DNA from: an uncultured archaeon
Lineage (GTDB): Archaea > Asgardarchaeota > Thorarchaeia > Thorarchaeales > Thorarchaeaceae
Assembly (NCBI GenBank): GCA_964610875.1
Contig: CAZSWP010000003.1
Location: 88,504 to 152,503 of the forward strand
DNA length: 64,000 nucleotides
Direction of reading: 5' to 3'
Shown: one piece after another, positions 3,964-32,426 of the stretch
Layout: each line of letters starts with the position of its first letter
Numbering within the stretch: the stretch's first letter is position 1
The notes under the pieces: model-generated
Told to the model about the DNA's origin: nothing
Seen by the model: the letters and a program-made list of their open reading frames with translations, nothing else
The model's database searches: none
Translations under genes and position numbers: made by a program

Positions 3964-5280
3964 CTATTTCAGATATTGCTCTAAATATGCGTAGTTCTTT
4001 GTGAGAGTACCTCGATAGACTATTACAGCATCAAGTAGTTCTCTCGGAAGACTAAGTTCTTCAAAAGGAACTGAGAAGTCTGCCCCTGCTAGGGCAGGAA
4101 TGAAGTCAAGTAAAGTTTCACTAAAGGATGTAGAAGCCTCCCTGGGTAGTTCACAGGGAAGATTATCAACAGCCATAATTACAGGCCCATCACCTTCAAC
4201 TCCAAGAAGGGCTTTATCCTCATCCACAATGTAAGTGAATGATGGTCTGTCTGCATGTGTGCATTGTAATGTGAATTCAATTGCCCCACCTATATCGCAG
4301 GAGATATCACCTATGATTCTAAGTTTTCTTGATTCTTCATGCCAGTGTTTCCGTATGAAATCCTTAGTAATCAACCGAGGAGATTTCTTGGTCCAGTATA
4401 TGCAATTCATTAGGACTGTAAGACTGTGAACATACTTGTGAAAGACGCCCAGGTATTTCTCCGCACCATGTTTGTAGTAATCCTGTAAATCAAATGATGC
4501 ATTTGGGTCGATTGGTTCTACCATATGTTCTTCTTTGAAGACACATTTGTATAGAAGATCATCCTTTGGAGGAAGACTGTTTAGCTGTTCAGGGGTGATT
4601 TCTTCATGGGGGAGAATGTCGAATATTTTCTGAGCCCCACATGATACATTTCCATACCCTGCAAAACCAATAACAAAAGGTGTGAGTTGAGGAGGAAGGC
4701 CTTGGGTTTTAATTCTCTCAGCCAATTTTCTGAACTCTTCCTTCAATTCAGAGAGGTCTTTGCATTCAAGAGTCGAACGCATGCCAGCAAAGGGATTGGG
4801 TTTGATGTCTTCATAATCAAGTCGCTCTCCAAGTGAACGAAGTGTATCTGAAATTCCAGCCATCCCTGCCCAGTTTCCAAAATAAATCAGACGTCTACCT
4901 TTGTCATCAATCACTTTTTCATAATCAATCAGAGTTGCGCCAGTGTCAAGTAATCGTTGCAACATTGACATGTTTTGTTTCTGACCTTTTATGGTGTGAC
5001 TGAAGAAAATATATACCTTATCAGGCTCAAAAAAATCATTTGGCATCTCTTTGATTCCGAGAACTATTGGAACGTTGGATCTTTTGAGGGGAGAAATCTC
5101 CGCTCCAACCTGTATATACTCTTTAGCATCAAAAGCTCGTTGGTTACTTGGTTCTACAACAAATGAAATTCCGTGTTTTTCACCAAGTAGTTTCACGTGT
5201 CCTGGTATTACAGCTACTCGAGTTTCAAATGCTTTTTCTTCCTTTCGCAGGCCTATCAGGTTCAGGATGAATCCCTCCAA
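3964..5280 (-). CDS. Lysine-ketoglutarate reductase (LKR domain of AASS; AlaDH/PNT fold)
   Basis: GIKE, FFSHTIKGQ, LIDYE, GNVSCGAQ, DISCD, AVDNLPCELP motifs. Confidence 0.9.
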   Translation of the reverse strand: MEGFILNLIGLRKEEKAFETRVAVIPGHVKLLGEKHGISFVVEPSNQRAFDAKEYIQVGAEISPLKRSNVPIVLGIKEMPNDFFEPDKVYIFFSHTIKGQKQNMSMLQRLLDTGATLIDYEKVIDDKGRRLIYFGNWAGMAGISDTLRSLGERLDYEDIKPNPFAGMRSTLECKDLSELKEEFRKLAERIKTQGLPPQLTPFVIGFAGYGNVSCGAQKIFDILPHEEITPEQLNSLPPKDDLLYKCVFKEEHMVEPIDPNASFDLQDYYKHGAEKYLGVFHKYVHSLTVLMNCIYWTKKSPRLITKDFIRKHWHEESRKLRIIGDISCDIGGAIEFTLQCTHADRPSFTYIVDEDKALLGVEGDGPVIMAVDNLPCELPREASTSFSETLLDFIPALAGADFSVPFEELSLPRELLDAVIVYRGTLTKNYAYLEQYLK

Positions 5281-5406
5281 TCAAGCTTTACTTGGGAGAT
5301 GAATCGCTTTCGAAAGAAACACACGCTTTAACCTTTCCATCGCGGACGATATTGTATTACACAACATGATATTGAGAACATGTGTTCCATATTTCGAGGA
5401 ACCAGA

Positions 5407-5700
5407 ATGGTACATCTATTATACCTCTATGATTGTGTTAATTCTAGAAAGAGCAACGCTAGAAGAGTATCTTTTACAAAAGAGCTCTATGGTTTTACAT
5501 ATTCTTGGAAAACGAAGTCAGGACCTAAAGAGAGAAAGAAGAGTGGCTTGATTGATGTGTGCGTTGGTGCAACAGCTGTTAGTGACTCAGCTATTTTAGT
5601 TCCGGAGGAATATAGAGGTCTCTTTGATCAACTATTCAATGCATATCGTGACATTCTGAACATCCGCATTTTTGAGATAAACCAAGAATTGGAATTATAA
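5407..5700 (+). CDS. Small hypothetical protein, possibly Cas2/VapD/PaaX-like ferredoxin fold
   Basis: MVHLLYLYD start resembles the Cas2 hhhhYD strand; ...FTKELYG...SAILVP pattern; fold assignment is inference. Confidence 0.45.
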   Translation: MVHLLYLYDCVNSRKSNARRVSFTKELYGFTYSWKTKSGPKERKKSGLIDVCVGATAVSDSAILVPEEYRGLFDQLFNAYRDILNIRIFEINQELEL

Positions 5701-5925
5701 GAACACGTGTTCCAACAACCTGCAAACCCCTTCATTTCCTGTCGAAAATAAAATCTTCTAAAAAACTATAAAGAACAAAAGTATAAATATAGGTTTGCCG
5801 AACTACATTTATCTCCATTTTACTAACATACATACTTACACACTTTTCTACTCCATTCTACTAATTTCCAGTGGAAGCAGAGGGGTATATTGGCTGGGTC
5901 ATACACACTGGAACACGTGCTCCAA
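5701..5925. promoter_or_regulatory. Probable replication origin (oriC): inverted ORBs flanking an AT-rich unwinding element
   Basis: ORB on minus strand at 5726-5746 (TTCGACAGGAAATGAAGGGGT) and ORB on plus strand at 5866-5886 (TTCCAGTGGAAGCAGAGGGGT); A/T-rich tract between them; 5801-5870 has no G on the top strand. Confidence 0.7.
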
Positions 5926-6013
5926 AACTTGCATGATGGTTCAAACCACAACACTGATACTATGTTTAGTTTTCCGATGATTCGCCCAAAGAGGAAAATC
6001 GGAGGATCTTGCG

Positions 6014-7903
6014 ATGACGAAACCAAAGGAGCTTCTTGAAGACGCGCCTGAAAAAACTGTTCTTTTACTGGCTAATGAAGCAATTGCACGTGGGGTACTT
6101 GAAGCAGGAGTACGATTAGTTGCTTTATATCCTGGCACACCAAGCAGCGAAATCGGTAATAATCTTACATTTATGGCACCTGAAATACCTAATTTTTACT
6201 TTGAATTTAGCACAAATGAGAAAGTTGCCTTAGAAGTTGCAGGTGCAGCTGCTGTTGCTGGTGTTCGTTCAATGATGGTATGTAAAGGCCCAGGACTGAA
6301 TGTTGCAGCAGATCCTTTCTTCTCATTAGCCTATGTTGGGGTACGAGCTGGCATGGTGATAGTGGTTGCAGATGACCCTAGCATGTGGAGTTCGCAGAAC
6401 GAGAATGATAGCCGTTACTATGCACTCATGGGAAATATGCCAATGATTGAACCTGCGGATCCTGCTGAAGCTAAGTCAATGCTGCTTGAAGCATACAAGA
6501 TATCTGAGAAACTTCAGCTTCCAGTATTATTCAGAACTACAACAAGAGTGAATCATACCAGAGCTCCTGTAACCTTTGGTCCTATACGTGCACGCCCAGA
6601 GAAAATAGAATTTGAAAAAGACCCATTCAGATTTGTCCCTGTTCCGGCTGTGGCAAGAAAAAGACATCCATGGTTGTTACAACAGATTGAACTTGCCAAG
6701 GAGATATCTGAAAAGACTTCACTGAACTTTATCGAAGGTGAAGGCGAGCTTGGAATCATCACCAGTGGTGTATCATATAACTATGTCAAAGAAGCATTTG
6801 ATACAATGGGAATCAATGCAGAAGTGATGAAGTTAGGGATGACCCATCCCGTTCCAGAACACAAAATCATGGAATTCCTCAGAAGTCATAATCGAGTTTT
6901 AGTTGTTGAAGAACTAGAACCGTTCCTAGAAACACATGCTAGAAGAATTGCTCAACTGCATGATATCAAAGTGGAGATCTTAGGGAAAGAACAAGGGTAT
7001 TTTGAGCGAACCTATGAGTACAGTCCACGTATCGTCATGCAAGCTTTGGAGTCTATTACTGGTAATACAAGTATTAATTGGAATGAGATTGAGGAACTTG
7101 CTGGAACAATTCCAGAGATTCCGCCACGACCTCCATTACTTTGTGCAGGTTGTCCACATAGAGCTAGTTACTTTGCAATTAGAACTGCTACTCGTGGAAA
7201 GGCTATCTATCCATCAGATATTGGTTGCTATACTTTGAGCATTGCACCTCCTCTTGAAACAGCTGACATCTTGTTTGATATGGGATCATCCATAACCACG
7301 GCATGTGGTCTTGCACAAGTGACTGATCAAGACATTGTTGCAACAATCGGTGATAGCACATTTTTCGCATCAGGTCTTCCTGGTATTGTTGATGCTGTCT
7401 ATAACCATCACCCGATAGCATTAGTTGTCTTGGACAATCGTACAACAGCAATGACAGGGCATCAACCACACCCAGGTACTGGAGTTACTGGAATGCAAGA
7501 AAAAGTTGAACCACTCGACATTGAAGAAGTATGTAGAGGGCTGGGTGTAAAGTATGCAAAAACTATTGATCCCTTTGAATCTGTAGCTGATCTTGTCAAA
7601 GAAGTAAGAGAGATGGTGGCTTGGTCACGTGAGAACAAAGCTCCATCAGTATTAGTATCTAAAGCTCCATGTGCACTTCTCACAGCTGCTGATAGAAGAA
7701 GAAGTGGAGAATACCCACCAAAGTATTACGTCGATTCTGAAATATGCAACTCATGTAAGAGATGTTTGAACCGACTTTCTTGTCCAGCAATGTATCTTGA
7801 TCCTGAAACTGACAAAGCAGTAATTGACGAAGCATTATGTAATCTCTGTGGTACGTGTGTTTCGGTATGCCCCCAGGGGGCTATTAAACAGGAGGAGAAA
7901 TAG
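6014..7903 (+). CDS. iorA: Indolepyruvate:ferredoxin oxidoreductase alpha subunit
   Basis: YPGTPSSE, NEKVALE, DDPS..SSQNE.D, LCAGCPHR, SDIGCY, GDSTF and C-terminal 2x[4Fe-4S] ferredoxin. Confidence 0.95.
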   Translation: MTKPKELLEDAPEKTVLLLANEAIARGVLEAGVRLVALYPGTPSSEIGNNLTFMAPEIPNFYFEFSTNEKVALEVAGAAAVAGVRSMMVCKGPGLNVAADPFFSLAYVGVRAGMVIVVADDPSMWSSQNENDSRYYALMGNMPMIEPADPAEAKSMLLEAYKISEKLQLPVLFRTTTRVNHTRAPVTFGPIRARPEKIEFEKDPFRFVPVPAVARKRHPWLLQQIELAKEISEKTSLNFIEGEGELGIITSGVSYNYVKEAFDTMGINAEVMKLGMTHPVPEHKIMEFLRSHNRVLVVEELEPFLETHARRIAQLHDIKVEILGKEQGYFERTYEYSPRIVMQALESITGNTSINWNEIEELAGTIPEIPPRPPLLCAGCPHRASYFAIRTATRGKAIYPSDIGCYTLSIAPPLETADILFDMGSSITTACGLAQVTDQDIVATIGDSTFFASGLPGIVDAVYNHHPIALVVLDNRTTAMTGHQPHPGTGVTGMQEKVEPLDIEEVCRGLGVKYAKTIDPFESVADLVKEVREMVAWSRENKAPSVLVSKAPCALLTAADRRRSGEYPPKYYVDSEICNSCKRCLNRLSCPAMYLDPETDKAVIDEALCNLCGTCVSVCPQGAIKQEEK

Positions 7904-7904
7904 A

Positions 7905-8534
7905 ATGTCTAGTAATACAGGTAATACGAGCAATTTGGTCAGCGTTGCAATATCAGGTGTTGGTGGCCAAGGAGTCCTAACTCTTGCAGAGGTACTAGCC
8001 AAAGCCGCATTGAGAAACTCCCACAATGTTCGTGTTGGTGAGATTCATGGAATGGCACAACGTGGTGGGCATGTAATATGCACTGTCAGAATAGGTCCTG
8101 GTGCAAAAGGACCGATTGTAGATAATGGCACAGCTGACATAATGGTTGGATTTGAACCTGCTGAAACTCTAAGAGAAATCCAGCTTGTGAAAAAGGATGG
8201 ACATGTTTTGATGAATACCCATATCATGTATCCAGTAGCTGTTTCCATGGGGAAAGCTGAGTATCCAGAACACAAAGAGATCCTAGAAAATATGAAGAAA
8301 TTCAGCAAGAACATAATTGAATTTGATGCCTTTCAACTAGCAAAGGAATCAGGTGATACTCGGGCAATGAACATGGTCATGCTCGGAGCTATAATTGGTA
8401 CTGGTATCACACCAATAAGTGAAGAAGCCGCAATTGAATCAGTCCGGACATCATTTCCTGGTAGGTTCGAAGAAATTAACATCAAAGCTTTCAAGCTTGG
8501 TCTAGAGAAAGTGAAACGTTTATTAAAATCATAG
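7905..8534 (+). CDS. iorB: Indolepyruvate:ferredoxin oxidoreductase beta subunit
   Basis: GVGGQG, EIHGMAQRGG, NMVMLG motifs; ATG at 7905 after GGAGG, directly after iorA. Confidence 0.93.
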   Translation: MSSNTGNTSNLVSVAISGVGGQGVLTLAEVLAKAALRNSHNVRVGEIHGMAQRGGHVICTVRIGPGAKGPIVDNGTADIMVGFEPAETLREIQLVKKDGHVLMNTHIMYPVAVSMGKAEYPEHKEILENMKKFSKNIIEFDAFQLAKESGDTRAMNMVMLGAIIGTGITPISEEAAIESVRTSFPGRFEEINIKAFKLGLEKVKRLLKS

Positions 8535-8558
8535 TTATTACTTGTAATACAAATATTA

Positions 8559-10928
8559 CTAGTAGATTTCTCTTGCTATCGCCACTGCTGCTTGACCAAT
8601 AGACACGCCTCCATCTCCCGGAGGAACATCTCTATGGATAAGAGGAGTAAGACCATGATCCTTAATTTTAGAAACAATAGCTCTTGTAATAATTCGGTTC
8701 AATGCGACTCCTCCTGAAAATCCAATGTGTCTGACAGCGTATTGTTTGGCATTCTGTACAGCAATGTCTACAAGAGAAGACCCCAAATACCATTGAGCCG
8801 CATACGCAATATCTTGAACTGGTTCTCCTCCCCTACGCAAATCGATTATGTATTGAATTGCATCGCGGACATCAAGCTGCATTTGCCCATTGTTTTCAGA
8901 GAAAATACTAGGTATCCTAAGTGTTGATTCTCTTGCTATTGCCTCAAGTTTCATTGGGCACTCACCATCATATGTATTAGCATCACATATTCCAAGAACT
9001 AATGCAACAGTATCAAGAAACCTTCCCGCACTGCTGCTTGTCACTGTATTGATTTTGCGTTTCGTGGCCGTCAATAATAATGAAACTTCTTCTTCATTTG
9101 CAATTCTATCTTTTGATATTCGTGGATAAGTAACAGCATTCAAAATTCCATCAGCATTCATATCATCAGCCATGAAACCAATGAACGGTCTAATTGCATA
9201 TTGTGCAGTAAGATTTCCTCCAGGAAAGTCATAGGGTTTTATACCTCCGATGCGGTCGTACTGTTTTGCATCCCCAAGTAATATCTCTCCACCCCAAGCA
9301 TTCCCATCATCTCCATAACCGAAGCCATCAGCTGTAATACAAATAATACGAGTATTAAGTGGTAGTTTGTACTCCACAAGATGCGAAGCTAAATGTGCAT
9401 GATGATGTTGTACTCTGTGAAGATTTGCATCATAAGTTTCTGAGAGATGTTCAGCAAGACTAGTTGTGAGAAACTCGGGATGCAAATCACAAGCCACAGC
9501 ATCCACAGTGTTAAGACCAATTAAAGACATCAGATGATTTAGAGCGTCTTTAAGAAACTCCACATTTTCAATTCTATCAGTATTTCCAATATACTGCGTT
9601 GGATAGACTCTTCCAGATCTTACAAGAGACCCCGTTACCTTTTCTTCTGGACCCACTGCCAATACGCTATGATGCTTTGGTACATCTTTGAGTGTTAATG
9701 GCTCAGGGACATAACCCCTTGCTCTCCTAATGAGCAAAGTTGAATCGTTTATCACTTTGATAACTGAGTCATCTTCTCTTTGATGGATTCTTCTATCATG
9801 CACCAGAAAATAATCGGCTATAGAGTGTAATTCAGAAACCAAGGCATCGGAATCAATATACATAGGGATACCTGTAGGATTCGCACTGGTCATTATCAGA
9901 GCAGGTTCATCCAAGTAATCAAAGAGAAGTAGATGAACAGGTGCGTATGGAAGCATAACTCCAACTGTATCGAGTCCTGGTGCAATGAGATCAACTGTCT
10001 CCTGAGGTATTAGTTGTAATACAGATATTTTCTTCACTGATTTTTTCCTAACCAACACAATTGGTCTGCGCCAGGATTTGATTAGATCTAACTCCATCTC
10101 TGTGATATCGAAATTATTTAGAAGAGTATCTTCATCACGGACCATTATTGCAAAAGGTCTTGCAGACCTTTTCTTACGTTCACGAAGTTCTTCTATGGGT
10201 CTATAATCTCGTGTCCCCGTCACAAGATGAGTACCAGAAATCCCTTGGACTGCCAGAATCTTATTACATGCAATCAGTTCTGAAGCCTTTTTTATCGAGT
10301 TTTTCAATTCCAGAGAGTTTCCACTTTTATCAACTAGTTTGTATTGAGGTCCACAATCTTCGCACGCTGTTGTTTGAGCATGATATCTCCTGTCGAGGGG
10401 ATCTGTATAACCAATATTACAAGTATTACATAACGGAAAATCAACCATTGTAGTATTCGGACGATCATATGGCAGAGTTGTTATGGTTGAATATCTTGGA
10501 CCACATGCTGCACATGAAGTGAAAGGATAACGATACCATCTTGATGCTTCATCAAATAGGTCCCTTTTGCAATCACCACATATAGCTATATCTGGTGGTA
10601 TGATTGGATCAACATCCTCTGTTCTTGTTTCTGAAGATTTTTCAATCAGGAACTCATCAAAATCATTCTGAAACTTTTCCCATTGAACAGAAATTTCGTC
10701 CACTCTTGAGATTGAGGGAGGTTCAGATTTTACCATCTGTATCAGTTTTTCTAGTTGCTTCTTTTCACCCTCAGCCACTATTCGTACACCTGCATCACCT
10801 AGGTTTAAGACATATCCTGTTAAAGAAAGATTTCTAGCTACACGGTATACAAAAGGCCGGAAGCCTACACCTTGTACAATTCCATTCACTCTAATAATGG
10901 CACGTTGCTTCAAAGATCCAAACTCCAT
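8559..10928 (-). CDS. hypF: Hydrogenase maturation carbamoyltransferase HypF
   Basis: GIVQGVGFRPF acylphosphatase domain, two CxxC zinc fingers, VQHHHAH, PPGDGGVSIGQ. Confidence 0.97.
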   Translation of the reverse strand: MEFGSLKQRAIIRVNGIVQGVGFRPFVYRVARNLSLTGYVLNLGDAGVRIVAEGEKKQLEKLIQMVKSEPPSISRVDEISVQWEKFQNDFDEFLIEKSSETRTEDVDPIIPPDIAICGDCKRDLFDEASRWYRYPFTSCAACGPRYSTITTLPYDRPNTTMVDFPLCNTCNIGYTDPLDRRYHAQTTACEDCGPQYKLVDKSGNSLELKNSIKKASELIACNKILAVQGISGTHLVTGTRDYRPIEELRERKKRSARPFAIMVRDEDTLLNNFDITEMELDLIKSWRRPIVLVRKKSVKKISVLQLIPQETVDLIAPGLDTVGVMLPYAPVHLLLFDYLDEPALIMTSANPTGIPMYIDSDALVSELHSIADYFLVHDRRIHQREDDSVIKVINDSTLLIRRARGYVPEPLTLKDVPKHHSVLAVGPEEKVTGSLVRSGRVYPTQYIGNTDRIENVEFLKDALNHLMSLIGLNTVDAVACDLHPEFLTTSLAEHLSETYDANLHRVQHHHAHLASHLVEYKLPLNTRIICITADGFGYGDDGNAWGGEILLGDAKQYDRIGGIKPYDFPGGNLTAQYAIRPFIGFMADDMNADGILNAVTYPRISKDRIANEEEVSLLLTATKRKINTVTSSSAGRFLDTVALVLGICDANTYDGECPMKLEAIARESTLRIPSIFSENNGQMQLDVRDAIQYIIDLRRGGEPVQDIAYAAQWYLGSSLVDIAVQNAKQYAVRHIGFSGGVALNRIITRAIVSKIKDHGLTPLIHRDVPPGDGGVSIGQAAVAIAREIY

Positions 10929-11073
10929 TCTTCTTTGAAAAATAATTATGATATTAAGTCAATGAAGTGGCAAAGGAATCTACTTTTGTCATTACATTAC
11001 AAGTATAACATGTATTACAATCAATTTTGTAGGTCCTCTTAAGTATGAATACAGAATATACTATTGATTTTAG

Positions 11074-11487: not shown

Positions 11488-11488
11488 C

Positions 11489-11518
11489 AATATATGTAAT
11501 ACAGGTATTACATATATT
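11489..11518. repeat. Perfect 14-bp inverted repeat built from two GTAWTAC boxes
   Basis: AATATATGTAATAC-AG-GTATTACATATATT. Confidence 0.9.
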
Positions 11519-11636: not shown

Positions 11637-12212
11637 ATGAGGACTCTTAAGATGAGTGATGAAAAAACAAATGAAATAAACGTGGAAGAAGCGAAAAGAC
11701 TAGCAAAAGGGACTAAACAAGTAATGAGAGAACCCATTCTTCGTATACTATTGGAAAGGTCTCTCATTACCGAAGCACAACTAGAAACCTTACTAATTGA
11801 TCTTGTAGTTGAAGATGCAATAAGACAACAAATACCGTATGAAGAGAAAGCAAGCTTACGATCTAAGAAATCGAGTAGAACGAAAGGGGTATCCAGAGGT
11901 GCATTCAACAGGACACTAAAACAAGCAAGGCGTAATGTTACAAGATGTCTTTACACAATGTTACTCTTAGCATATTTAGGACTATTTGATTTTGCAGTAT
12001 TTCGTCCATTTGAAGAAGTAGCAGCAAAAATTGGGAACTACAGAAAAATCAGGGATGTATTATCTGGCAGGTCAAATCTAACTGATGAAGAATTGGAAAG
12101 CTATCATGCTTCAGAGAGAGCAATTACAGAAGCACTTGAAAATATGGCTACGTCTTTGATATTGAAGTCAGAAATTTCACGTAGACGTGGTACCACAGAA
12201 AATGAAGAATAG
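11637..12212 (+). CDS. Conserved archaeal hypothetical protein with HTH (Tfx-like) region
   Basis: LITEAQLETLLID...YEEKA...GVSRGAFNRTLKQARRNV...YTMLLLAYLG: HTH-like recognition helix. Confidence 0.65.
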   Translation: MRTLKMSDEKTNEINVEEAKRLAKGTKQVMREPILRILLERSLITEAQLETLLIDLVVEDAIRQQIPYEEKASLRSKKSSRTKGVSRGAFNRTLKQARRNVTRCLYTMLLLAYLGLFDFAVFRPFEEVAAKIGNYRKIRDVLSGRSNLTDEELESYHASERAITEALENMATSLILKSEISRRRGTTENEE

Positions 12213-12626
12213 AGTATTATTTGTATTACATTTTATGTAATCTATGTCAAGCGATGAAAATAGGTAAAAATAAAATTGGCACGAATGTGTCGATTCACAC
12301 GTAGACCCAATGCGTTGAGGAATCCACAGGAACTCGTATCATTAGCATTACCATCATCTGAGGTATTTGCGAGGAGATAGAGATGGTAACAACCAATCTC
12401 CGAGTTAGCCTGCAGATCATTTTCCACAAGCATTGAGTGTTCATCGTAAATACGACACACTCACTATATAGTAAGTTCAAACTTCTACATAGTTCTAATC
12501 CTAGAACGAGGTGTTACTCAAATAATCTCAATAACATTAAAAGATAATATCGATTCTCTATACTATTATAAGTAATAATCGTATTACAATAGCCATCTAC
12601 AAAATGCGCAATCTACTTTATATAAA

Positions 12627-13883
12627 ATGCATTACAAAATGGTGATCACTTTGAGAGATAATGACCCCCTGGATAAACTAAGACGATCTGCAAAAAGATA
12701 CATTGAGAAAAAAAGTGAGAAGGAACTATTGGAACTAATTGTAAATTGTATTGGTGAGCGCCGTTCAAATGATTTACTTGATATTCTTGCGTCTGAAGAA
12801 TCAAAAAGGGGCTGGCAAAAAGTTGTGTTTGATATAAAACACATACTTGGAATGAGATATTCTATACCTCTAGGATTCACAAAAAATAAACTTGAAATTG
12901 AAGAGCTGAAGTTTAGAGAAGTTATCTTCGACACACTAGGATGCCGAGGTCTTGAAGCAATTCCTTTGAGTATAGATTTGATACTTGAGAAACTAAATAC
13001 ATGTGAGAATATGACTGAGGCACAGAATACTCTAGCAGTGCTATGTGAGGAAGGGTTGAATGAATTAATCAGCAAGGGGGCACTACTTTTCTTTGACTCA
13101 TCAGAATTTGCTGCTACTATTAAATCAGAATTACTGAGTCAAATTGAAAGTCGCCAGGAACAAAATATCTCACAACTTTATTTATCACGAGATGATCAAT
13201 ACATAGATATCACCGCTCTTTGGCACACAGAATTAGGCAGAAGAGCACTTCTCAATATTGGAATAAAAGGAACTAAAATCACGGAAACTCAAATGGACCT
13301 TGTAATATCTGTATTACAAGTATCACGAGAAACGAAAAAATATCTGATGGAATCCTTATCTGAGAACAAACAAGCGATTGAAACCAAATCTCTCAACCCA
13401 TTGTATAACGAACTACTACAGTACATGATTGAATGGAACATTTCTGGTCTTCGCTCTCTTGGAAGTAGATTTGCAATACCATTATTCAGACATATCACAA
13501 TCTTTTCTTTTGAAAAATACTCAACTACTGAAGATAGTAAAACATACAATGAATATCTCGAAAGTCTGAAAAATCATGTACTTGTTAGAACATCTGAATC
13601 ACTAGAAATACTTGAATATCTCTCTCAGAAATCAGACCCAAGAATTGCAAGCCCTGCAATCACATATCTTGGAAACTTTTACACAGCAACAGTATCATCA
13701 ATATTGGTAGATCTCGTCTGTTCAAGTAAGAAAAAAGTAATTCAACATACCGCTGTTACAGCATTGAAAAACGTCCAAACAAGATGCCCAGAAACTAAGA
13801 ATATAGTTGAGCTTGCTCTTAAAGCAGATTGCCAGAATAGAGGAAGACTATTGAAGTTTTATAGAGATTTGTGGCAAAAGTGA
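12627..13883 (+). CDS. Hypothetical alpha-helical protein with C-terminal HEAT-like repeats
   Basis: 418-aa ORF; LEILEYL..KSDPRIASPAITYLG and VIQHTAVTALK HEAT-type segments. Confidence 0.6.
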   Translation: MHYKMVITLRDNDPLDKLRRSAKRYIEKKSEKELLELIVNCIGERRSNDLLDILASEESKRGWQKVVFDIKHILGMRYSIPLGFTKNKLEIEELKFREVIFDTLGCRGLEAIPLSIDLILEKLNTCENMTEAQNTLAVLCEEGLNELISKGALLFFDSSEFAATIKSELLSQIESRQEQNISQLYLSRDDQYIDITALWHTELGRRALLNIGIKGTKITETQMDLVISVLQVSRETKKYLMESLSENKQAIETKSLNPLYNELLQYMIEWNISGLRSLGSRFAIPLFRHITIFSFEKYSTTEDSKTYNEYLESLKNHVLVRTSESLEILEYLSQKSDPRIASPAITYLGNFYTATVSSILVDLVCSSKKKVIQHTAVTALKNVQTRCPETKNIVELALKADCQNRGRLLKFYRDLWQK

Positions 13884-13965
13884 CCGTATTACAAGTATTA
13901 AAAACAATACAAATCTAACTGCCATCTCGACAGACATAAAACCCACTTGTATCTAGCTCATTATC

Positions 13966-15360
13966 ATGATGGTAAGAAATGAGATTGTGGAGGAACTAGA
14001 CTCATTTTTCAATCCGAAAAGAGTTGCACTAGTAGGAGCCTCTGCTGACTATAGAAAACTGGGTAATTCAATATTGATGAATTTACTTGCATCAGAAATT
14101 GAAATTTATCCTATTACTATCAGTCGTGACCGTGTTTTAGGCGTCAATGCATATCCAAATCTCCATGATTTACCACAGCCTGTTGATCTTGTTATCATTG
14201 CTGTGGCAGCAAAATATTGTACTGGACTCATGTCAGAAGTCCGAAAAGCTGGAGCAAGAAATGCTATAGTAATATCTGGTGGATTTAGTGAAACTGGGGA
14301 GGAGGGGAAGAAACTTGAGAAACAACTTGTAGATGCTGCTAAGGCTGAGGGTGTCAGGATAATTGGTCCTAATTGTGTAGGAGTTTCAAATAGTAGATTG
14401 TTCAATGGCACATTTACTATGATGCCCGAGAGAGGAAATATTGCTCTTCTCTCTCAAAGTGGTGCATTAGGTGGAATGACCATATACACTACAAGAACAA
14501 AACGAATTGGGATGAGCAAATTTGTTAGCCTTGGGAATGCAGCTGATGTCAGTTTCACTGAAGTCCTTGAGTATTTCAGATATGACCAGAGAACGAACGT
14601 GATTGCAGTCTATGTTGAAGGTGTAGATGAGGGTCGTGATTTTTATGAAGCATTAAAGAGAGCCTCGAGCGAAAAACCTGTTGTAGTTCTCAAGGGGGGA
14701 AGAAGTGAGGCTGGGGCAAAAGCAACCATGAGTCATACAGGGTCTCTTGCAGGTTCTATCAAAGTCTTTGATGGAATGATACGCCAAGCAGGTTGCGTGA
14801 CTGCTCCTACATTTGATTCATTCTTTGAAGTTTGTAAATTATTTGATTATCAACCTTTACCGAAAGGTCGTAATATTGGTATTATTAGTAATACAGGGGG
14901 AGCTGGTGTTCTCGCTACTGATAAAGCGACCGACATGAACCTTGAAGTACCAGTTTTAAATCCTGAAACACGAAATGAATTAAGACAAGCCCTCTCTCCT
15001 ATGGCATCAATTGAAAACCCAATCGATGTTGTTGCTAGTGGTGGAAGAAGGGAATACCGTATTGCTACAGAGTTATTGTTGAAAGATTCCAATGTTGATA
15101 TGTTGTTAGTCATATGTGGCGTTCCAACCTTTGCAGGGATGACCCAAACTGAACATGCTGCTGGTACACTTGAAGGGGTACGGATGGCTGAAACTAGTAA
15201 ACCAGTAGTGGGTGTTTGGCTCGCTGGCAATGTTGGAAAACCTGGAAAAGATCTTCTGGAGATGAATCGCATTCCTTGTTATGATGATCCAGCATTAGGT
15301 ATTCTCTGCATGACTAAGATGGCTGAATATGCTGAAATGCACAGTCATATGAACTTGTAG
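13966..15360 (+). CDS. acdA: ADP-forming acyl-CoA synthetase alpha subunit
   Basis: FFNPKRVALVGAS, GPNCVG, SQSGALG, SHTGSLAGS phospho-His motif, NPIDV. Confidence 0.92.
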   Translation: MMVRNEIVEELDSFFNPKRVALVGASADYRKLGNSILMNLLASEIEIYPITISRDRVLGVNAYPNLHDLPQPVDLVIIAVAAKYCTGLMSEVRKAGARNAIVISGGFSETGEEGKKLEKQLVDAAKAEGVRIIGPNCVGVSNSRLFNGTFTMMPERGNIALLSQSGALGGMTIYTTRTKRIGMSKFVSLGNAADVSFTEVLEYFRYDQRTNVIAVYVEGVDEGRDFYEALKRASSEKPVVVLKGGRSEAGAKATMSHTGSLAGSIKVFDGMIRQAGCVTAPTFDSFFEVCKLFDYQPLPKGRNIGIISNTGGAGVLATDKATDMNLEVPVLNPETRNELRQALSPMASIENPIDVVASGGRREYRIATELLLKDSNVDMLLVICGVPTFAGMTQTEHAAGTLEGVRMAETSKPVVGVWLAGNVGKPGKDLLEMNRIPCYDDPALGILCMTKMAEYAEMHSHMNL

Positions 15361-15385
15361 TAATTGTATTATTTGTAATACACCA

Positions 15386-15691
15386 TTATTCAAGATACTT
15401 GTTTGCAAGTTCCGGAAACTCGTCTGTAACTGCATCCCTAAGCTTGCGCTCGACCCACATACTTAGATTGATTGCACGCTCATTTCTTACAGACTGAAGA
15501 CAAGACCTAAGTTCAGTTGTAACACTGAATGACATTATTGGACTTCGTCTCTCACTGTTAGGAACAGCTGAGGGAGTTTCAGTCCTTCTAACCCGGGTCT
15601 GGCTGGTAGATTCAGTTGTTGATGTTGTTTCGTCTTTGTCTTTTTCATCTCTACCTTGTTCATCTTTCCGGTACTTTCCTAAGAGACTCAT
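15386..15691 (-). CDS. Small ribbon-helix-helix DNA-binding protein with disordered N-terminal tail (ParG/omega/SegB-like architecture)
   Basis: C-terminal IMSFSV (strand) - TELRSCLQSVRNE (helix A) - NLSMWVERKLRDAV (helix B); charged Ser/Thr-rich linker; start overlaps the ATPase stop (TAATG). Confidence 0.7.
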   Translation of the reverse strand: MSLLGKYRKDEQGRDEKDKDETTSTTESTSQTRVRRTETPSAVPNSERRSPIMSFSVTTELRSCLQSVRNERAINLSMWVERKLRDAVTDEFPELANKYLE

Positions 15692-16683
15692 TATCTGACC
15701 TCCCTAAGTAACGTCGCATATGCATCGGAAACTAGTGATGCTATCTCTTCATTAACCTCAGGATTTCCATTGCTCCTGAAGTTTTCAGCAGCTACTTGTT
15801 GACAACCACGAGCTAACATTCTGATATCGCGAGGATTGCCTTTTGCAGCTGAATTGATTATATCAATCGCCTTCTCATGGAATGGATAAAGATCAAAATC
15901 ATTTAGATCGAATGTGTCAATCTCACCACGTGCATATGCCAACCGTCGTCCTATGAACTCCTTTGCCTTCATAGCATCAAATGCAGGCACATCAAGGGGT
16001 TCAGTTCTATCAGCAATCTGTGGAAGATATGATAGCATAGCATTCCAATACATTGCAGTACCACTCATCACAAGAGTCACAATTGGTTCATCTAATGACT
16101 GTCCATGGCCTGCAATCATCTCTTCTGTAGGTAAATCTGCCAAGTAGCGTAATTTATGAAATGCTGCTTCCTGATTATCCGCAACATCTTCTATGAATAG
16201 TGCAGTACGACTTTGTTCTTCCATATATCTCCGAAGACATTCTTGAGCCACTGCTTCGATAATCTGACTAGACTCCCAAGACCTCCGATATTTTACTCGT
16301 AATGAATCGGCAATAGCTGCCGACATTTGCTTCTCGTATAACCCAGTCATTCCAACATAACCAGTGACGAATTTGTTACCACGTCGATCTGCCAGTGTTG
16401 GCAGGTCTCTCAGGGCAAGTAACATCAATGTACTTTTTCCAGAACCAACAGGTCCACGAAGGAATACATGTCGCTCGTTTGTTATTATCAAATCTACAAT
16501 AGAGTCAAGAAAGTCTGCATGCTCTATATAGAGCCGACTATCTGGCATCTTGAAACCACGAAATGGTGAGAATTTGGCCCTGATTTTATCCTCCCAAGCT
16601 TTTAGGGTTTCTTTTCGTGTATTGAAGTGACGTATTAGAGCACTCTCATGAATTGCAATTGTCATGGCTCGGCCTCGTATCAC
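15691..16683 (-). CDS. AAA+ ATPase of the ExeA/TnsC/Cdc6-like (AAA_22) clade
   Basis: Walker A GPVGSGKS, Walker B-like LFIEDV, sensor I VMSGT, arginine finger IADR, sensor II GNPRDIR; likely start ATG at 16665. Confidence 0.8.
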   Translation of the reverse strand: MIRGRAMTIAIHESALIRHFNTRKETLKAWEDKIRAKFSPFRGFKMPDSRLYIEHADFLDSIVDLIITNERHVFLRGPVGSGKSTLMLLALRDLPTLADRRGNKFVTGYVGMTGLYEKQMSAAIADSLRVKYRRSWESSQIIEAVAQECLRRYMEEQSRTALFIEDVADNQEAAFHKLRYLADLPTEEMIAGHGQSLDEPIVTLVMSGTAMYWNAMLSYLPQIADRTEPLDVPAFDAMKAKEFIGRRLAYARGEIDTFDLNDFDLYPFHEKAIDIINSAAKGNPRDIRMLARGCQQVAAENFRSNGNPEVNEEIASLVSDAYATLLREVR

Positions 16684-16898
16684 ATGTAGTTATTGTAATA
16701 CAATTTCAATACACTGCCCATTCATAAAGGTTCCGTGCGTTCAAAATACTTTATTCAAACAGCGCCAATAAAAAGCAATGTTTCAATAACATGGTATTAA
16801 CTGTAATACATTCCAATCACGAAAATCCGAACATGGCACAACCTTTTTCAACCAATTGCTTTCGTGATTCAGTAGTTGACGCAAGGAGTCACAAGAAA

Positions 16899-17177
16899 AT
16901 GGACGTTGACAGGACTCAGCGAATTCTGACATCATTAATGATCATCAGTTTTCTAGTATTCGGCCTTTTAGCTGGAATCATTTTGATCACTGATGCACCA
17001 TTGGACGCATCCACTACCTCACTGCCTTTTGCTTTTCTATTCATATCAGGAATGACACTGATAATTACCGGACAAATAAATGAGCGTCCAAAACGGGTAG
17101 ATAGATACCTACGACAATGGTTGGTCATCTGTGTTTTTGTTGCCGTTCTTAGTGCTCTTGCATTTACACTTGCATAG
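16899..17177 (+). CDS. Small membrane protein (about 3 TM helices)
   Basis: ATG at 16899 after AGGAG; three hydrophobic segments. Confidence 0.6.
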   Translation: MDVDRTQRILTSLMIISFLVFGLLAGIILITDAPLDASTTSLPFAFLFISGMTLIITGQINERPKRVDRYLRQWLVICVFVAVLSALAFTLA

Positions 17178-17260
17178 AAACACCTATCGCAATAGTTTTA
17201 GGAATGCGAAAATGCAGTGGATTTATTGAGTAATGACTCAATATACTGAGCCATGAAAAA

Positions 17261-17899
17261 GTGATTATTATGAGCAAGGTTCTGCCAGGAACAAAGACTA
17301 CTCGAAGCGAACTACTTCGAATAAAGACAAGAATGCGTCTTGCAGAACGTGGTCATGATTTATTAAAAGAAAAACGTGACTCCCTTGTTTTAGAGTTTTT
17401 TAATGCTATTGCTGAAATAAAAGAAGCACGTGACAAGATGGAAAAAGCTCTCGATGAAGCTTTTTCAAGTCTTACACAAGCAAAGATGATTATGGGTCCT
17501 GCTCGAGTAATTGAATTCGCTCATGCGAGTAAAGTACGAACTGACCTATCGATTACCACTCGTTCAATGATGGGTGTCCGTGTTCCGGTAATCTCTGTTG
17601 AACAACAAGTACCTGAACTTCCTTATTCTCTCCCTGACTCAAGTGCAAGGCTTGATACAATGAGTCTGAAATTTAGAGAGGCTCTAAAGGCAATAATACA
17701 CCTTGCCGAAATTGAATCTGCAATCAAGCGCCTCGCTCTTGAAATAGAAAGGACAAAACGCAGAGTTTCTGCTCTCGAAACTGTGGTAATACCACGACTA
17801 GATGCAACCCAGAGATTTGTGAAACTGGCACTCGAAGAACGCGAGCGAGAAGACTTCATTCGTCTGAAGATCATCCGTGATCGGATGGAAAACGAATAA
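17261..17899 (+). CDS. atpD: A/V-type ATP synthase subunit D
   Basis: TRSELL..K.R..LAERGHDLLKEKRD; EIERTKRRVSALE..VIP; LEEREREDF.RLK. Confidence 0.93.
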   Translation: MIIMSKVLPGTKTTRSELLRIKTRMRLAERGHDLLKEKRDSLVLEFFNAIAEIKEARDKMEKALDEAFSSLTQAKMIMGPARVIEFAHASKVRTDLSITTRSMMGVRVPVISVEQQVPELPYSLPDSSARLDTMSLKFREALKAIIHLAEIESAIKRLALEIERTKRRVSALETVVIPRLDATQRFVKLALEEREREDFIRLKIIRDRMENE

Positions 17900-17903
17900 T
17901 ACA

Positions 17904-18281
17904 CTAGGTTTTTCTAAGTTTTAAAATAGCTGCAGCCAAATCTCCACCCGTTTCCTTCAAAGTTTCAATTGCAGTTTCAATATCCACACCTGTCTGGCCT
18001 GCCACTAATGCTGCATCTTCAACTGGAATCTCAATCTCAGATTCTGCTACTTCTGTGACTTCACCACCAGATGTGAGTCCACGTTCTATCTTATTTCCTG
18101 ATACTTGATATGATTCATTCCCTGCTTGCTTAATGACCATCACTTGCGCATTAGCAATCTGCCATTCTTTATCTTCAAAACGAATAATGACCTCTTTAAC
18201 TCCTTTTAGCTCATTTTGTTCAATACCCATTTTTTTCATCATTCGTGCCATCTGTTTAGGTGATAGTCCTCGAAATCCCAT
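17904..18281 (-). CDS. nac: Nascent polypeptide-associated complex protein
   Basis: PKQMARMMKKMGI NAC domain; C-terminal UBA-like GDLAAAILKL. Confidence 0.92.
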   Translation of the reverse strand: MGFRGLSPKQMARMMKKMGIEQNELKGVKEVIIRFEDKEWQIANAQVMVIKQAGNESYQVSGNKIERGLTSGGEVTEVAESEIEIPVEDAALVAGQTGVDIETAIETLKETGGDLAAAILKLRKT

Positions 18282-18374
18282 TATTCATTCCTCAGAAATC
18301 TGTAATTTTGATATCAATTACTTTCCTCTTTAGTGAAATAATTATGGCCACTGATAAAACGGTTGTGCTCTAGT

Positions 18375-19202
18375 TCAAATAGATTCCAGCTCTATGTCAA
18401 AAACAAAATGGATAATATTGGGCGAATAGTATTTTATTTTACGTATTTCAATACTAGCAGTGAAATTATATTTCCCAGAAATAGTATTAATTGTATTACA
18501 AACATTATGGATTGAATCTGGATGTGATGCAAGATGCATATGTATGGCACCTCCTCTCTTGGAAAGTGTTTCAAGGGCGTAGGGCAGAAACTCTGTAGTG
18601 CTATGCAAGTAACCCATCACAATCCTATCTGCTATACCAATAGGATGTACCTTCCTACAGTCTCCCAAAATTGCTTCCATTCTATCAGTTACATTATTGA
18701 GTTGAATGTTTTCCTGTAAATAAGAGTGTGCTAAAGGACTGATTTCAATAGCTATCACTTTTGCTCCACTCCTACTAGCTATATGCAACCCGAATTGTCC
18801 TACACATGCAAACATATCCACAACGGTTTCTGAGGGATCGACCAAGTCCGGCAAACGAATTCGCTCTGCACGATTACCTCCAGAAAAAGTAATCTTCAAT
18901 GGGTCAAGTTTGAACTTTACTCCACTTTCAATGTGTGTGGTGACAGTGTTAGAATCTCCTGCAAACAACTTGTATTGTGGTTCTCTGATCTCTCCTTTTG
19001 TGCCTCCAACCTTAATAGCAATAGACTTTGCCTTTTTCTCATACTGCAGCGTAAGCTCTGCAATCATTTTGGATAGAACAGCAACCTCATTTTTTATCTG
19101 TAGTAGGACGACATGTCCTACAACGTGGTAACCTTGTGGTAAGCTAGACTCTGATGTAACATATTCTCTGAGTTCTGTTTTGAGGAAATTCCTATATTTC
19201 AT
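18375..19202 (-). CDS. Trm5/Taw2 (Met-10) family SAM-dependent tRNA-modifying enzyme
   Basis: HIESGVKFKLD, FSGGN..ER, VVDMFACVGQF, ADRIVMGY. Confidence 0.85.
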   Translation of the reverse strand: MKYRNFLKTELREYVTSESSLPQGYHVVGHVVLLQIKNEVAVLSKMIAELTLQYEKKAKSIAIKVGGTKGEIREPQYKLFAGDSNTVTTHIESGVKFKLDPLKITFSGGNRAERIRLPDLVDPSETVVDMFACVGQFGLHIASRSGAKVIAIEISPLAHSYLQENIQLNNVTDRMEAILGDCRKVHPIGIADRIVMGYLHSTTEFLPYALETLSKRGGAIHMHLASHPDSIHNVCNTINTISGKYNFTASIEIRKIKYYSPNIIHFVFDIELESI

Positions 19203-19224
19203 TGTAATTCATGTATTACAATTT

Positions 19225-23316: not shown

Positions 23317-23355
23317 TAAGCAACTCTTTTATTGGGATTAGACTAGCGATGGATA

Positions 23356-27062: not shown

Positions 27063-27063
27063 C

Positions 27064-32420: not shown

Positions 32421-32426
32421 ATTCAA

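Follow-up and report, generated by a model that had tools for sequence, protein, structure and literature searches.

In the Sulfolobales, 16 ChIP peaks fall within the 50 kb surrounding segAB and oriC1, most sites are intragenic, and SegB sites have been proposed to compact and loop origin-near DNA (PMC8682754, bioRxiv 10.1101/2025.02.07.637068). SegB and ParG share a tail-linker-domain layout (PMC8682754). The two genes of the segAB operon encode SegA, a ParA-type Walker ATPase, and SegB, a small RHH protein whose disordered N-terminal tail activates the NTPase; the SegB site is a single 13-bp palindrome, and sites lie directly upstream of the operon. Type Ib partition cassettes (ParF-ParG-parH of TP228; delta-omega of pSM19035) are plasmid-borne and combine a ParA motor with a tailed RHH adaptor that acts cooperatively on short repeats in one compact block of ~100 bp; the same sites serve as centromere and operator, and the N-terminal tail stimulates the ATPase. 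In bacterial ParABS, palindromic parS sites are concentrated near oriC, rare elsewhere and often intragenic, and their clusters load SMC and mark the origin region for segregation and organisation, with ParB as a spreading HTH CTPase clamp and ParA as the motor. To our knowledge, an AAA+ motor is used by no partition system. Orc1/Cdc6 reads DNA at ORBs through its own winged helix and an initiator-specific motif. TnsC, MuB and TniB are transposon-borne AAA+ ATPases; they form polymers on DNA, and a separate sequence-specific adaptor positions them. The closest site grammar to that described below is found in MetJ and its metboxes, where short palindromes abut in runs of 2-5 and one RHH dimer binds each unit cooperatively; MetJ differs in its 8-bp unit (9 bp here), in being a metabolic repressor at promoters and in having no ATPase partner.

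The window analysed here (the whole 64-kb stretch of Thorarchaeota DNA) contains, beside a putative origin, the sole field of evenly spaced, tandem 9-bp palindromic boxes in its genome. The field is real, phased, under selection and tied to an AAA+/RHH operon that it encloses; because its boxes are kept inside housekeeping genes and around this conserved operon, it looks like an undescribed centromere-like or origin-organising system. No paper describing the field/operon system was found. Similar to SegAB, the system is archaeal and consists of a two-gene operon for an NTPase and a small, probably RHH-type protein with a disordered N-terminal tail, with sites directly upstream, and by analogy the tail may activate its NTPase as in SegB. 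However, the NTPase is ORC/Cdc6-like AAA+ rather than ParA-type, the sites are 2-3 abutting 9-bp palindromes, and the field is ~4-fold denser than SegB sites, evenly spaced and almost confined to one stretch. Unlike the type Ib cassettes, the system is chromosomal, has about 18 blocks over 12 kb and pairs with an AAA+ partner, and, in contrast to ParABS, a ParB_N domain was not found in the 95%-complete genome. The boxes are unrelated to ORBs, although Orc1/Cdc6 proteins are the nearest structural relatives of the ATPase, which is also genetically linked to orc1/cdc6 and ORBs; the ATPase has no domain beyond the lid and would depend on the RHH protein for its specificity. Dissimilar from TnsC, MuB and TniB, it is encoded by a single-copy core gene in conserved synteny, with no transposase nearby.

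A single field of phased boxes in the genome

Exact copies of GTAWTAC number 35 in the window, against 4.8 +/- 1.9 expected from dinucleotide shuffles, and none of 100 shuffles reached 35. Within 5205-19220 there are 24 copies; the first-pass annotation had reported at least 23 in these 14 kb, and the clustering it described stands, but the copy at 7723 had been overlooked. The other 50 kb of the window hold 11 copies rather than about 8, and the chance expectation per 14 kb, earlier put at about 3, is 1.1 by shuffles, 1.8 by a third-order Markov model and 1.3 at the genome rate (Poisson P for 24 copies, 6e-19 to 2e-22). A genome-wide count, which the annotation had proposed, covered 3.75 Mb (95% complete) and revealed a single dense region: the 10-kb bins here hold 17, 13, 12 and 9 copies, and each of the remaining ~640 bins holds at most 4. 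The observation is stronger than first stated.

The unit of the arrays is TGTAWTACA, repeated 2-3 times in exact 9-bp register. A neighbour matching at least 6 of 7 positions was present at offset -9 for 15 of the 24 heptads and at +9 for 7 of the 24, with none at the remaining offsets from 7 to 30 save a few at +/-18; the 9-bp phasing reported earlier is thereby confirmed, and the four three-unit arrays quoted with it read exactly as written. Phased dimers (9-bp spacing, at least 13 of 14 matches) number 25 in the genome, all on the field's contig; 20 are inside the field, and all but one (24) are no more than 20 kb from the AAA+/RHH operon. Dimers at spacings of 7, 8 and 10-14 occur 0-5 times genome-wide and never inside the field. 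The arrays are spaced evenly at ~700 bp (range roughly 360-1700 bp, smallest gap 358 bp), the coefficient of variation of the gaps being 0.47 versus 0.95 for random placement (P = 5e-4), and long genes carry internal arrays.

That the boxes are no protein sites at all, and instead represent hairpin terminators, mobile-element remnants or compositional chance, is extremely improbable and strongly disfavoured. Some arrays do sit right at stop codons, and adjacent units with opposite central bases could pair; however, neighbouring units share the central W in 6 pairs and differ in 10, which means that no hairpin is required, and a 7-bp stem closed by a loop of 2 nt is sterically poor. Conserved flanks and target duplications are absent, array positions are orthologous across genera, and P is below 1e-18.

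A probable origin at the edge of the field

The field had been described as origin-proximal, and an inverted ORB pair around an AT-rich spacer bears this out.

5727..5885: probable oriC core, inverted ORB pair around an AT-rich spacer of ~118 bp
5727-5747, minus strand: ORB
5866-5885, plus strand: ORB TTCCAGTGGAAGCAGAGGGG
5376, 5701 and 5911 (5376..5922): three GAACAYGTGYTC 12-bp palindromes bracketing orf106 and the ORBs
5407..5700, plus strand: orf106, small conserved protein abutting the origin (from alignment)

As in ORB-type origins, the inverted ORBs (TTCC..GGAA dyad plus G-string) flank an AT-rich unwinding element; the nearest of the two ordinary orc1/cdc6 genes of the genome is not adjacent, lying ~23 kb from the origin on the same contig. 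GC skew across the window was uninformative. The GAACAYGTGYTC palindromes are kept in all related genomes examined, other Asgard families included, and a homologue of orf106, which itself had no matches in Pfam or PDB, adjoins ORBs or palindromes in families f1, f2, f3, f7, f19 and f21. In 6 genomes of 2 families the ORB module is flanked by the orf106 homologue and IOR alpha; it also adjoins the orf106 homologue in G026 and G074, and in G026 an orc1/cdc6 gene is adjacent to the origin and, together with a 511-aa ORF, separates it from the operon. The first array stands 1.2 kb from the ORBs, and the origin is at one edge of the field, which extends almost wholly to one side, with boxes neither in the unwinding element nor symmetric around it.

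Array positions and conservation in relatives

The arrays and outlying boxes are as follows.

7053..7077: three-unit array in IOR alpha (aa ~347); G019, G014 and G008 have one at the orthologous position
7912..7927: two perfect units within codons 3-8 of IOR beta (SNTGNT)
8535..8559: three-unit array at the convergent IOR beta/HypF ends, with an array at the same junction in all 5 genomes compared
9334-9358, 10007-10022 and 10405-10429: three arrays inside HypF
10994..11018: three-unit array in the divergent HypF/o137 promoter region
11496..11511: two perfect units, o137 stop + 9 bp
12214-12229: array at the o191 stop
12572-12587: array preceding the HEAT-repeat gene by 40 bp
13302..13326: array of three units within the HEAT-repeat gene
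13886..13910: array in the gap from the stop of the HEAT gene to the start of ACS
14870..14894: array of three units within ACS (RNIGIISNT), codons almost identical across 5 genera
15357..15381: three-unit array at the convergent ACS/RHH gene ends, 5 bp from the RHH stop
16677-16701: operator-like array 12 bp upstream of the ATPase gene ATG
16794-16809: operator-like array ~130 bp upstream of the ATPase gene
18484..18499: array inside TYW2; G014 has one at this position too
19204..19219: final array of the dense field, lying between the start of TYW2 and the stop of PAN
22060, 23254, 25743 and 32725 (22060..32740): sparse outliers, thinning with distance from the field
-775 and -9660: two outliers left of the window start

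Although the stretch is ~90% coding, 8 of 17 arrays are intergenic. Seven lie well inside genes (IOR alpha, HypF three times, the HEAT protein, ADP-forming acetyl-CoA synthetase and TYW2), two more overlap the opening codons of the IOR beta and o128 frames, and three are at gene 3' ends, two of these between convergent genes; boxes at convergent ends and within unrelated coding regions had been reported before, as these two convergent and seven intragenic arrays substantiate. Arrays flank the AAA+/RHH operon on either side. Many arrays precede a start codon by 40-65 bp, and some may therefore also act on transcription.

This placement, the array 12 bp upstream of the operon and the fact that RHH proteins are usually repressors would fit ordinary operators, that is, a regulon of neighbouring genes under a local transcription factor with no chromosome-level role; such an explanation is nevertheless very improbable. 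At least 10 of the 17 arrays (the 7 deep intragenic ones and the 3 at 3' ends) are away from promoters, the array-bearing genes are functionally unrelated housekeeping genes, the spacing is even, and the sites are limited to one 12-kb stretch of a 3.75-Mb genome. Furthermore, the intragenic arrays are kept at synonymous sites and override a conserved HypF motif. In five genomes compared in detail, the arrays are at orthologous positions, evenly spaced and conserved at synonymous sites: with box columns defined from this genome alone, the other four genomes have identical codons in 15 of 22 box columns versus 158 of 1176 columns elsewhere (P = 1e-8). The array at 10405 overlies the zinc-finger motif of HypF, where CxxCxxEY is changed to CNTCN(T/I)GY; the four box-carrying genomes read CNTCN(T/I)GY or CDxCNTGY, and G004, which lacks the HypF box, retains EY. 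These data support the boxes as a selected, genome-unique cis element rather than operator noise, in agreement with the earlier view that they are unlike operators.

Of the 209 phased dimers in 15 genomes representing 15 genera of the same family, 199 are no more than 20 kb away from the AAA+/RHH operon, and the co-location of field and operon that the first-pass annotation had anticipated holds in every related genome examined. It had also named three outcomes that would count against it, namely uniform density, absent phasing and relatives without co-location; each was checked, and none occurred. In the regions examined in families f3, f7, f19 and f21 the field was not seen though the operon is kept, which indicates that the field is not required for the core job of the proteins. 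In f2, f7 and f21, where the field is absent, the 400 bp preceding the ATPase gene make up 1.4% of the sequence but contain 7 of the 41 GTAWTAC boxes (P = 3e-6).

The probable RHH protein and other candidate binders

The genes concerned are as follows.

15386..15691, minus strand: protein of 101 aa, made up of a conserved N-terminal peptide (MSLLGKYRK), a disordered, variable linker and, probably, an RHH domain
15691..16665, minus strand: ORC/Cdc6-like AAA+ ATPase that lacks a winged helix, its translation coupled to that of the RHH gene
11637..12212, plus strand: o191, conserved, with a possible sigma70-r4/DUF134-like HTH (KGVSRGAFNRTLxQARxN)

The 101-aa protein displays an invariant N-terminal peptide, the tail-linker-domain layout and a C-terminal strand-helix-helix pattern, and its monomer model contains an extended segment (51-58) followed by helices at 59-72 and 76-91. 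No sequence match was found in Pfam or PDB. Structural matches were weak (omega, with entries 1irq and 2bnw, SegB, ParD, NikR, PutA, CopA and RelB at Z 3.0-3.7), and language-model leads, at about 0.9, were RHH_10, RHH_1 and HicB; no similarity to SegB was detected at the sequence level, the structural comparison giving Z 3.4 at 13% identity. An RHH fold is thus no more than suggested, the fold matches to RHH proteins extending to Z 3.3-3.7.

A different protein encoded in the field could instead bind the boxes (o191, o137 or the HEAT-repeat protein), with the AAA+/RHH operon just a regulated neighbour. o191 is possibly a second conserved DNA binder, its HTH-like motif is conserved, and it stays beside the ATPase operon in other Asgard families; moreover, o137, o191 and the HEAT gene each have arrays on both flanks. 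We consider this improbable, however. Palindromes of 9 bp abutting in runs of 2-3 suit one small dimer per unit, as for an RHH protein, and are unsuited to an HTH dimer over half-sites one helical turn apart; in the field-less families it is specifically the ATPase gene that has boxes upstream, and no HEAT gene was detected in the region in G019 and G004, both of which bear the field.

The ATPase and a possible role in replication

The ATPase, whose start (ATG at 16665) was chosen from those of its homologues, has the Walker A motif GPVGSGKST and a sensor-2-like GNPRDIR. It is 74-87% identical across the family, and only 18 relatives were found among 1.84 billion representatives. Its structure model (pLDDT 89) most resembles archaeal Orc1/Cdc6, followed by TnsC and MuB: the top Foldseek matches were 1w5t, 1w5s, 1fnn and 2qby (E 1e-10 to 4e-8, TM about 0.5), and the target-selector ATPases TnsC, MuB and TniB ranked 8, 9 and 50. 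As in initiator-type AAA+ modules, two helices lie between strands 104-110 and 158-164. The protein stops at residue 330, after the lid helices, without the C-terminal winged helix (Cdc6_C, PF09079), which matched just two other genes in the genome; the Orc1/Cdc6 family model TIGR02928 gave 13.3 bits, below its cut-off of 181.3, and Pfam yielded weak AAA_16/AAA_22 matches alone. Given these matches and a fold like Orc1/Cdc6, TnsC and MuB, a ParA/SegA deviant Walker-A motor was rejected; the three ParA/MinD-like genes of the genome are on other contigs, with no RHH-like neighbour. An ExeA/GspA-like AAA_22 identity was likewise rejected (PF13401, 24.1 bits versus a gathering threshold of 27; TIGR03015, 23.5 versus 324.5). 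The 'ExeA' label of the ATPase is an automatic JGI annotation.

Because the ATPase is ORC/Cdc6-like rather than ParA-like, and because in 5 genomes of three other Asgard families its gene and the best-scoring orc1/cdc6 gene are 2.7-5 kb apart, a role in replication is about as plausible as one at a centromere. The corresponding alternative, replication control in place of segregation, has the RHH-targeted ATPase acting on initiation at the neighbouring origin, through titration or sequestration of the initiator or helicase, MCM/SMC loading over an origin-flanking zone, or re-initiation timing, with datA/DARS and SeqA-type origin-flanking site clusters as parallels. The similarity of the fold to Orc1/Cdc6 and eukaryotic Cdc6/ORC, the GNPR sensor-2-like motif, the proximity to orc1/cdc6 in other families, the gene order in G026, the 1.2 kb between ORBs and field, and the presence of the operon without the field in other families are all consistent with it. 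We regard it as rather unlikely, however, since the ATPase has no winged helix and scores far below the Orc1/Cdc6 cut-off, the boxes of this genome spread one-sidedly over 12 kb rather than in and around the unwinding element, two ordinary orc1/cdc6 genes are already present, and even ~700-bp spacing with a tailed RHH layout is a hallmark of partition adaptors (PMC8682754).

Proposed function of the field

The best reading is that the boxes are the site field of the RHH/ATPase pair, analogous to the SegAB sites of Sulfolobus but with a non-ParA motor; we infer on this basis the identity of the box-binding protein, its coupling to the ATPase and the cellular role, and 'dispersed centromere' is a label by analogy. 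We see an even chance that the field serves, in cis, as a landing pad for the proteins of the enclosed operon. Counting against this reading are the weakness of the RHH assignment, the presence of o191 as another candidate binder, the lack of a known partition system with an AAA+ motor, the one-sided position of the field relative to the origin, the families that keep the operon but show no field, and the many arrays close ahead of start codons. One dimer of the 101-aa protein would bind each TGTAWTACA palindrome, and dimers would cooperate across 2-3 abutting units, much like MetJ on its metboxes and omega on its heptads, so that the arrays would concentrate the protein on DNA close to the origin. 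Through its flexible linker, the conserved N-terminal peptide may recruit or activate the ATPase, which lacks a DNA reader and probably forms oligomers on DNA in the manner of ORC, TnsC and MuB. The resulting higher-order complex could mark, compact or move the origin region, as a centromere-like or origin-organising domain comparable to the SegB sites around segAB and oriC1 in Sulfolobus. The two operator-like arrays, 12 bp and ~130 bp ahead of the ATPase gene, would also autoregulate the operon; as in partition and SegAB systems, repeated cis sites are present at, around and directly upstream of the operon.

More tentatively, and with somewhat less than even confidence, Thorarchaeia and several other Asgard lineages may possess a new class of machine, in which a reader-less ORC/Cdc6-derived ATPase is aimed by a tailed RHH protein at such a field; if true, this would be a chromosome-handling machine class not described before, with a centromere-like multi-array field beside the origin.

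GTAWTAC boxes form a single phased field

The window contains 35 copies of the heptad GTAWTAC, compared with 4.8 ± 1.9 in dinucleotide-preserving shuffles. The first-pass annotation had listed 23 heptads between 5205 and 19220; a copy at 7723 had been missed, so that the actual number is 24, and the Poisson probability of 24 copies in 14 kb lies between 6e-19 and 2e-22. The assembly (3.75 Mb, 124 contigs, 95% complete) holds 366 copies (0.097 per kb), and because a third-order Markov model predicts 491 against this total, with the field counted in, any tendency outside the field is towards avoidance of GTAWTAC, which fits with stray sites being avoided. Binned at 10 kb, the field yields 17, 13, 12 and 9 copies, and every other bin of the genome holds at most 4; density is thus not uniform and peaks at the field.

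The 9-bp phasing that had been proposed for the boxes proved exact. Of the 24 field heptads, 15 have a neighbor with 6 or more of the 7 positions matching at offset -9, and 7 have one at offset +9; the other offsets between 7 and 30 yielded no such neighbor, a few echoes at +/-18 excepted. The unit is a 9-bp palindrome, TGTAWTACA, arranged in arrays of two or three units with no spacer between them. All 25 phased dimers in the genome (9-bp spacing, at least 13 of 14 matches) are located on the window's contig, 20 of them between 7053 and 19204, and dimers at control spacings number 0-5 in this genome and 0 in the field. Adjoining palindromes could also be read as hairpins; however, the central W of adjacent units is the same about as often as it is different, and hairpins are therefore less likely.

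The field contains 17 dimer arrays separated by gaps of 358-1690 bp, and their spacing is more regular than that of randomly placed arrays (coefficient of variation 0.47 vs 0.95; P = 5e-4), with similar values in three relatives. Eight of the 17 are in non-coding DNA, which makes up ~10% of the stretch, and internal arrays occur in genes longer than ~1.2 kb, the exceptions being PAN and the ATPase-RHH operon itself. The arrays might be plain operators, but at least 10 of the 17 lie away from promoters, conserved intragenic ones included; this reading is therefore less likely, as the first-pass annotation had argued from gene context. A possible array polarity was dropped because the perfect unit, mostly origin-distal in the genome under study (12 vs 3), shows no such pattern in two other genera (G014 and G008).

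The genes of this setting are archaeal housekeeping genes (PAN, NAC, TFE, TYW2, HypF, IOR and ADP-forming acetyl-CoA synthetase), and homologs of named origin assign the organism to Thorarchaeota. The ATP-synt_D gene listed below lies in conserved synteny, with NAC on one side and a small membrane-protein gene on the other, and its neighbors include no other ATPase-subunit genes.

Features within genes of the field
10405-10429: box array over the HypF zinc-finger motif (HypF codons ~167-175; CxxCxxEY to CNTCNIGY)
12627-13883, + strand: HEAT-repeat gene, 418 aa
17261-17899, + strand: ATP-synt_D gene (V/A-type ATPase subunit D)

A conserved, probable origin module adjoins the field

The field begins 1.2 kb to the right of a conserved inverted pair of origin recognition boxes (ORBs), and the 15 kb to the left holds only two dimers, in agreement with the origin-proximal position claimed for it.

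Features of the origin module
5376-5387, 5701-5712 and 5911-5922: GAACAYGTGTTC palindrome, immediately beyond each ORB, and upstream of orf106
5407-5700, + strand: orf106, ~95 aa, next to the ORBs or the palindromes in six families of Asgard archaea
5727-5747 and 5866-5885: inverted ORB pair, between orf106 and IOR alpha

The spacer inside the pair is AT-rich and ~118 bp long, with GAACACGTGTTC palindromes outside the ORBs. The module is present at the equivalent place in four other genera and the sister family, and an inverted ORB pair adjoins the orf106 homolog in the complete 1.4-Mb genome G026 (family f3) and in G074 (f21). GC skew gave no usable origin signal in the window, and the origin call is therefore based on this conserved architecture. 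One Orc1/Cdc6 gene is located 23 kb left of the origin on the same contig, and another on contig C16.

Copies of GAACAYGTGTTC flank the orf106 homolog in all Asgard families examined (f1, f2, f7, f19 and f21), which suggests either a separate dimeric, origin-associated factor or autoregulation by orf106. The invariant residues of orf106 include Y8, D9, R19, R20, W34 and S61; no family match was found, and a profile search against PDB sequences returned nothing significant. Its pattern faintly resembles the Cas2-like ferredoxin fold (PDB Cas2 row, E = 0.8), a lead only. In family f7, which has no GTAWTAC field, 7-8 GTTAAC hexamers occur in the ~360 bp upstream of the orf106 homolog (locus L014:1835-2189 in G030, and the equivalents in G040 and G076), and could represent the origin of that lineage or another kind of site cluster.

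The operon encodes an ORC/Cdc6-like ATPase and a probable RHH protein

Genes of the operon and o191
15691-16665, - strand: AAA+ ATPase gene (motifs GPVGSGKST, FIEDV and GNPRDIR)
15386-15691, - strand: gene of the 101-aa protein
11637-12212, + strand: o191, with a conserved KGVSRGAFNRTLxQARxN segment

The stop of the ATPase gene overlaps the start of the RHH gene. The ATPase model (pLDDT 89) is closest to Orc1/Cdc6 of Aeropyrum, Pyrobaculum and Sulfolobus and to eukaryotic Cdc6/ORC, followed by TnsC and MuB; the protein ends after the lid domain, has no winged helix, and scores below the Orc1/Cdc6 and ExeA family cut-offs. Its gene is single-copy and was found in 24 of the 26 genomes sampled from the family (74-87% identity), and only 18 relatives were found among 1.84 billion representative proteins.

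The 101-aa protein, a probable RHH protein, has an invariant peptide at its N-terminus (S2, L4, K6, Y7 and R8), joined by a low-complexity linker of variable sequence to a C-terminal strand-helix-helix segment that is conserved. Its structural matches include the RHH proteins omega (2bnw), SegB, ParD, NikR and PutA, at Z of only 3.0-3.7, and language-model leads also point to RHH; profile searches gave no Pfam or PDB sequence match, and Foldseek gave none below E = 5. A complex prediction for the ATPase with two RHH copies scored 0.01, a "no answer" that speaks neither for nor against binding.

The boxes could be bound by another protein, for example o191, a less likely reading. The o191 protein has a weak DUF134/sigma70-r4 lead, and a profile search against PDB sequences found nothing significant for it; its gene stands beside the ATPase-RHH genes across families, and it may be a third component of the system. 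A ParB_N domain was not found in this 95%-complete genome, nor was a ParA-type gene on the window's contig.

Arrays are conserved within the family, in places at the expense of protein sequence

Phased dimers were counted in 15 genomes, each from a different genus: 199 of the 209 are no more than 20 kb from the ATPase gene, in a region of ~1% of each genome; the proposed coincidence of the box peak with the operon thus extends to relatives. Five genera share the gene order from saccharopine dehydrogenase to TFE, and arrays are found again at orthologous positions: the junction of IOR beta and HypF, three sites in HypF, mid-gene sites in IOR alpha, the HEAT gene and ACS, the o137 and o191 stops, and both sides of the operon. 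The HEAT-repeat gene is present in G014 and G008 (~32% identity) and not at the equivalent place in G019 and G004, so that the gene content of the field varies and the arrays persist. A distal dimer, CTATTACGAGTATTAC, probably within a conserved gene, is identical in seven genera (G002, G003, G004, G006, G010, G011 and G012) ~9-12 kb from the ATPase gene; the window lacks it in that form.

Synonymous sites were scored with box columns set from the genome under study alone and scoring restricted to the other four genomes. At amino-acid-conserved, degenerate positions, codons were identical in 15 of 22 box columns vs 158 of 1176 elsewhere (P = 1e-8). In HypF, outgroups and G004, a genome without the box at this position, keep the zinc-finger motif CxxCxxEY, and the four genomes with the box have CNTCN(T/I)GY or CDxCNTGY instead; a second HypF array lies within a short insertion that is restricted to genomes bearing the box. 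The DNA word itself is thus under selection, with the protein paying the cost, and the field is a clear example of a DNA code overriding protein sequence, as the HypF zinc finger shows.

Outside the family the box is tied to the operon

Full-length ATPase orthologs were found in 6 of 27 sampled Asgard families. Outside the Thorarchaeaceae, orf106, the ATPase, a small RHH-like gene, o191 and HypF form a gene cluster, and the distance between the ATPase gene and the best-scoring orc1/cdc6 gene is 2.7-5 kb (five genomes, three families). No dispersed field was present in the regions examined there, and a de novo phased-motif search around the operon in f3 and f7 did not find one. Of 41 GTAWTAC boxes in f2, f7 and f21, 7 are found within 400 bp upstream of the ATPase gene, in 1.4% of the sequence (P = 3e-6, a value that, like the other P values, overstates independence because the genomes are related). 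GTAWTAC is therefore tied to the operon over a long evolutionary distance, which suggests expansion of an autoregulatory operator into the field in Thorarchaeia.

The sister family (G025) has no GTAWTAC dimers; in their place, 9-bp-period TTTATTATT arrays of up to 7 units stand at the RHH, o191 and IOR beta stops (L012:600-662; L011:14740-17174), and such arrays are concentrated in the orthologous 11 kb, with five loci vs eight in the remaining 2.2 Mb. These arrays are either degenerate boxes or low-complexity DNA of a 33% GC genome. The predicted beta-strand residues of the RHH protein differ in G025; however, a changed specificity through co-evolution of box and protein is not claimed, because one exact GTAATAC remains upstream of the ATPase gene and the genome has 33% GC.

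A candidate landing pad for ATPase assemblies

The binding grammar of RHH proteins (MetJ metboxes, omega heptads) consists of short palindromes that abut in cooperative runs, and the structural relatives of the ORC/Cdc6-like ATPase oligomerize on DNA, TnsC and MuB being placed there by a separate adaptor. Because the sites share this grammar, the layout is that of SegAB and type Ib cassettes, and such relatives oligomerize on DNA, the field may be a landing pad on which RHH dimers would nucleate ATPase assemblies over origin-proximal DNA. The first-pass annotation had proposed a centromere-like segregation or organizing complex; the unique, phased, origin- and operon-linked sites stand, and the choice between segregation and control of initiation is not one that sequence can make. 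We consider it an evenly balanced judgment that the output would be segregation and compaction, a generic version included. Control of initiation or loading is rather improbable as the output, and stays alive because the ATPase fold is ORC-like and its gene is linked to orc1/cdc6 in other families.

The locus resembles SegAB and type Ib cassettes in pairing a tailed, here probable, RHH protein with an NTPase, here from translationally coupled genes, and in having sites on the operon's promoter with a further cluster near the origin; the motor differs, being an ORC/Cdc6-like AAA+ protein. SegB gives 16 ChIP peaks in 50 kb around segAB and oriC1, 84% of SegB sites are within genes, and SegA is activated by the disordered N-terminus of SegB (10.1101/2025.02.07.637068; PMC8682754). 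On segregation in these organisms, a 2024 review only credits Asgard archaea with ParA/ParB homologs that they "may use" (PMC7617429), and the titles and abstracts returned by full-text searches with partial coverage of the literature held no description of the present system. The locus offers a concrete, testable candidate for Asgard chromosome organization and segregation, with parts that are all small: a DNA code (TGTAWTACA in 9-bp register), one adaptor and one ATPase. If the ATPase is a motor or organizer, it would be the first AAA+ protein of the ORC clade so used, and would bear on how ORC-type proteins gained chromatin roles beyond initiation. The field is also usable as an in-silico marker of the origin region in fragmented Thorarchaeota assemblies. 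Two microbial-mat metagenome runs from a single study contain the stretch, one of them being its probable source, and no RNA run is listed among those that contain it.
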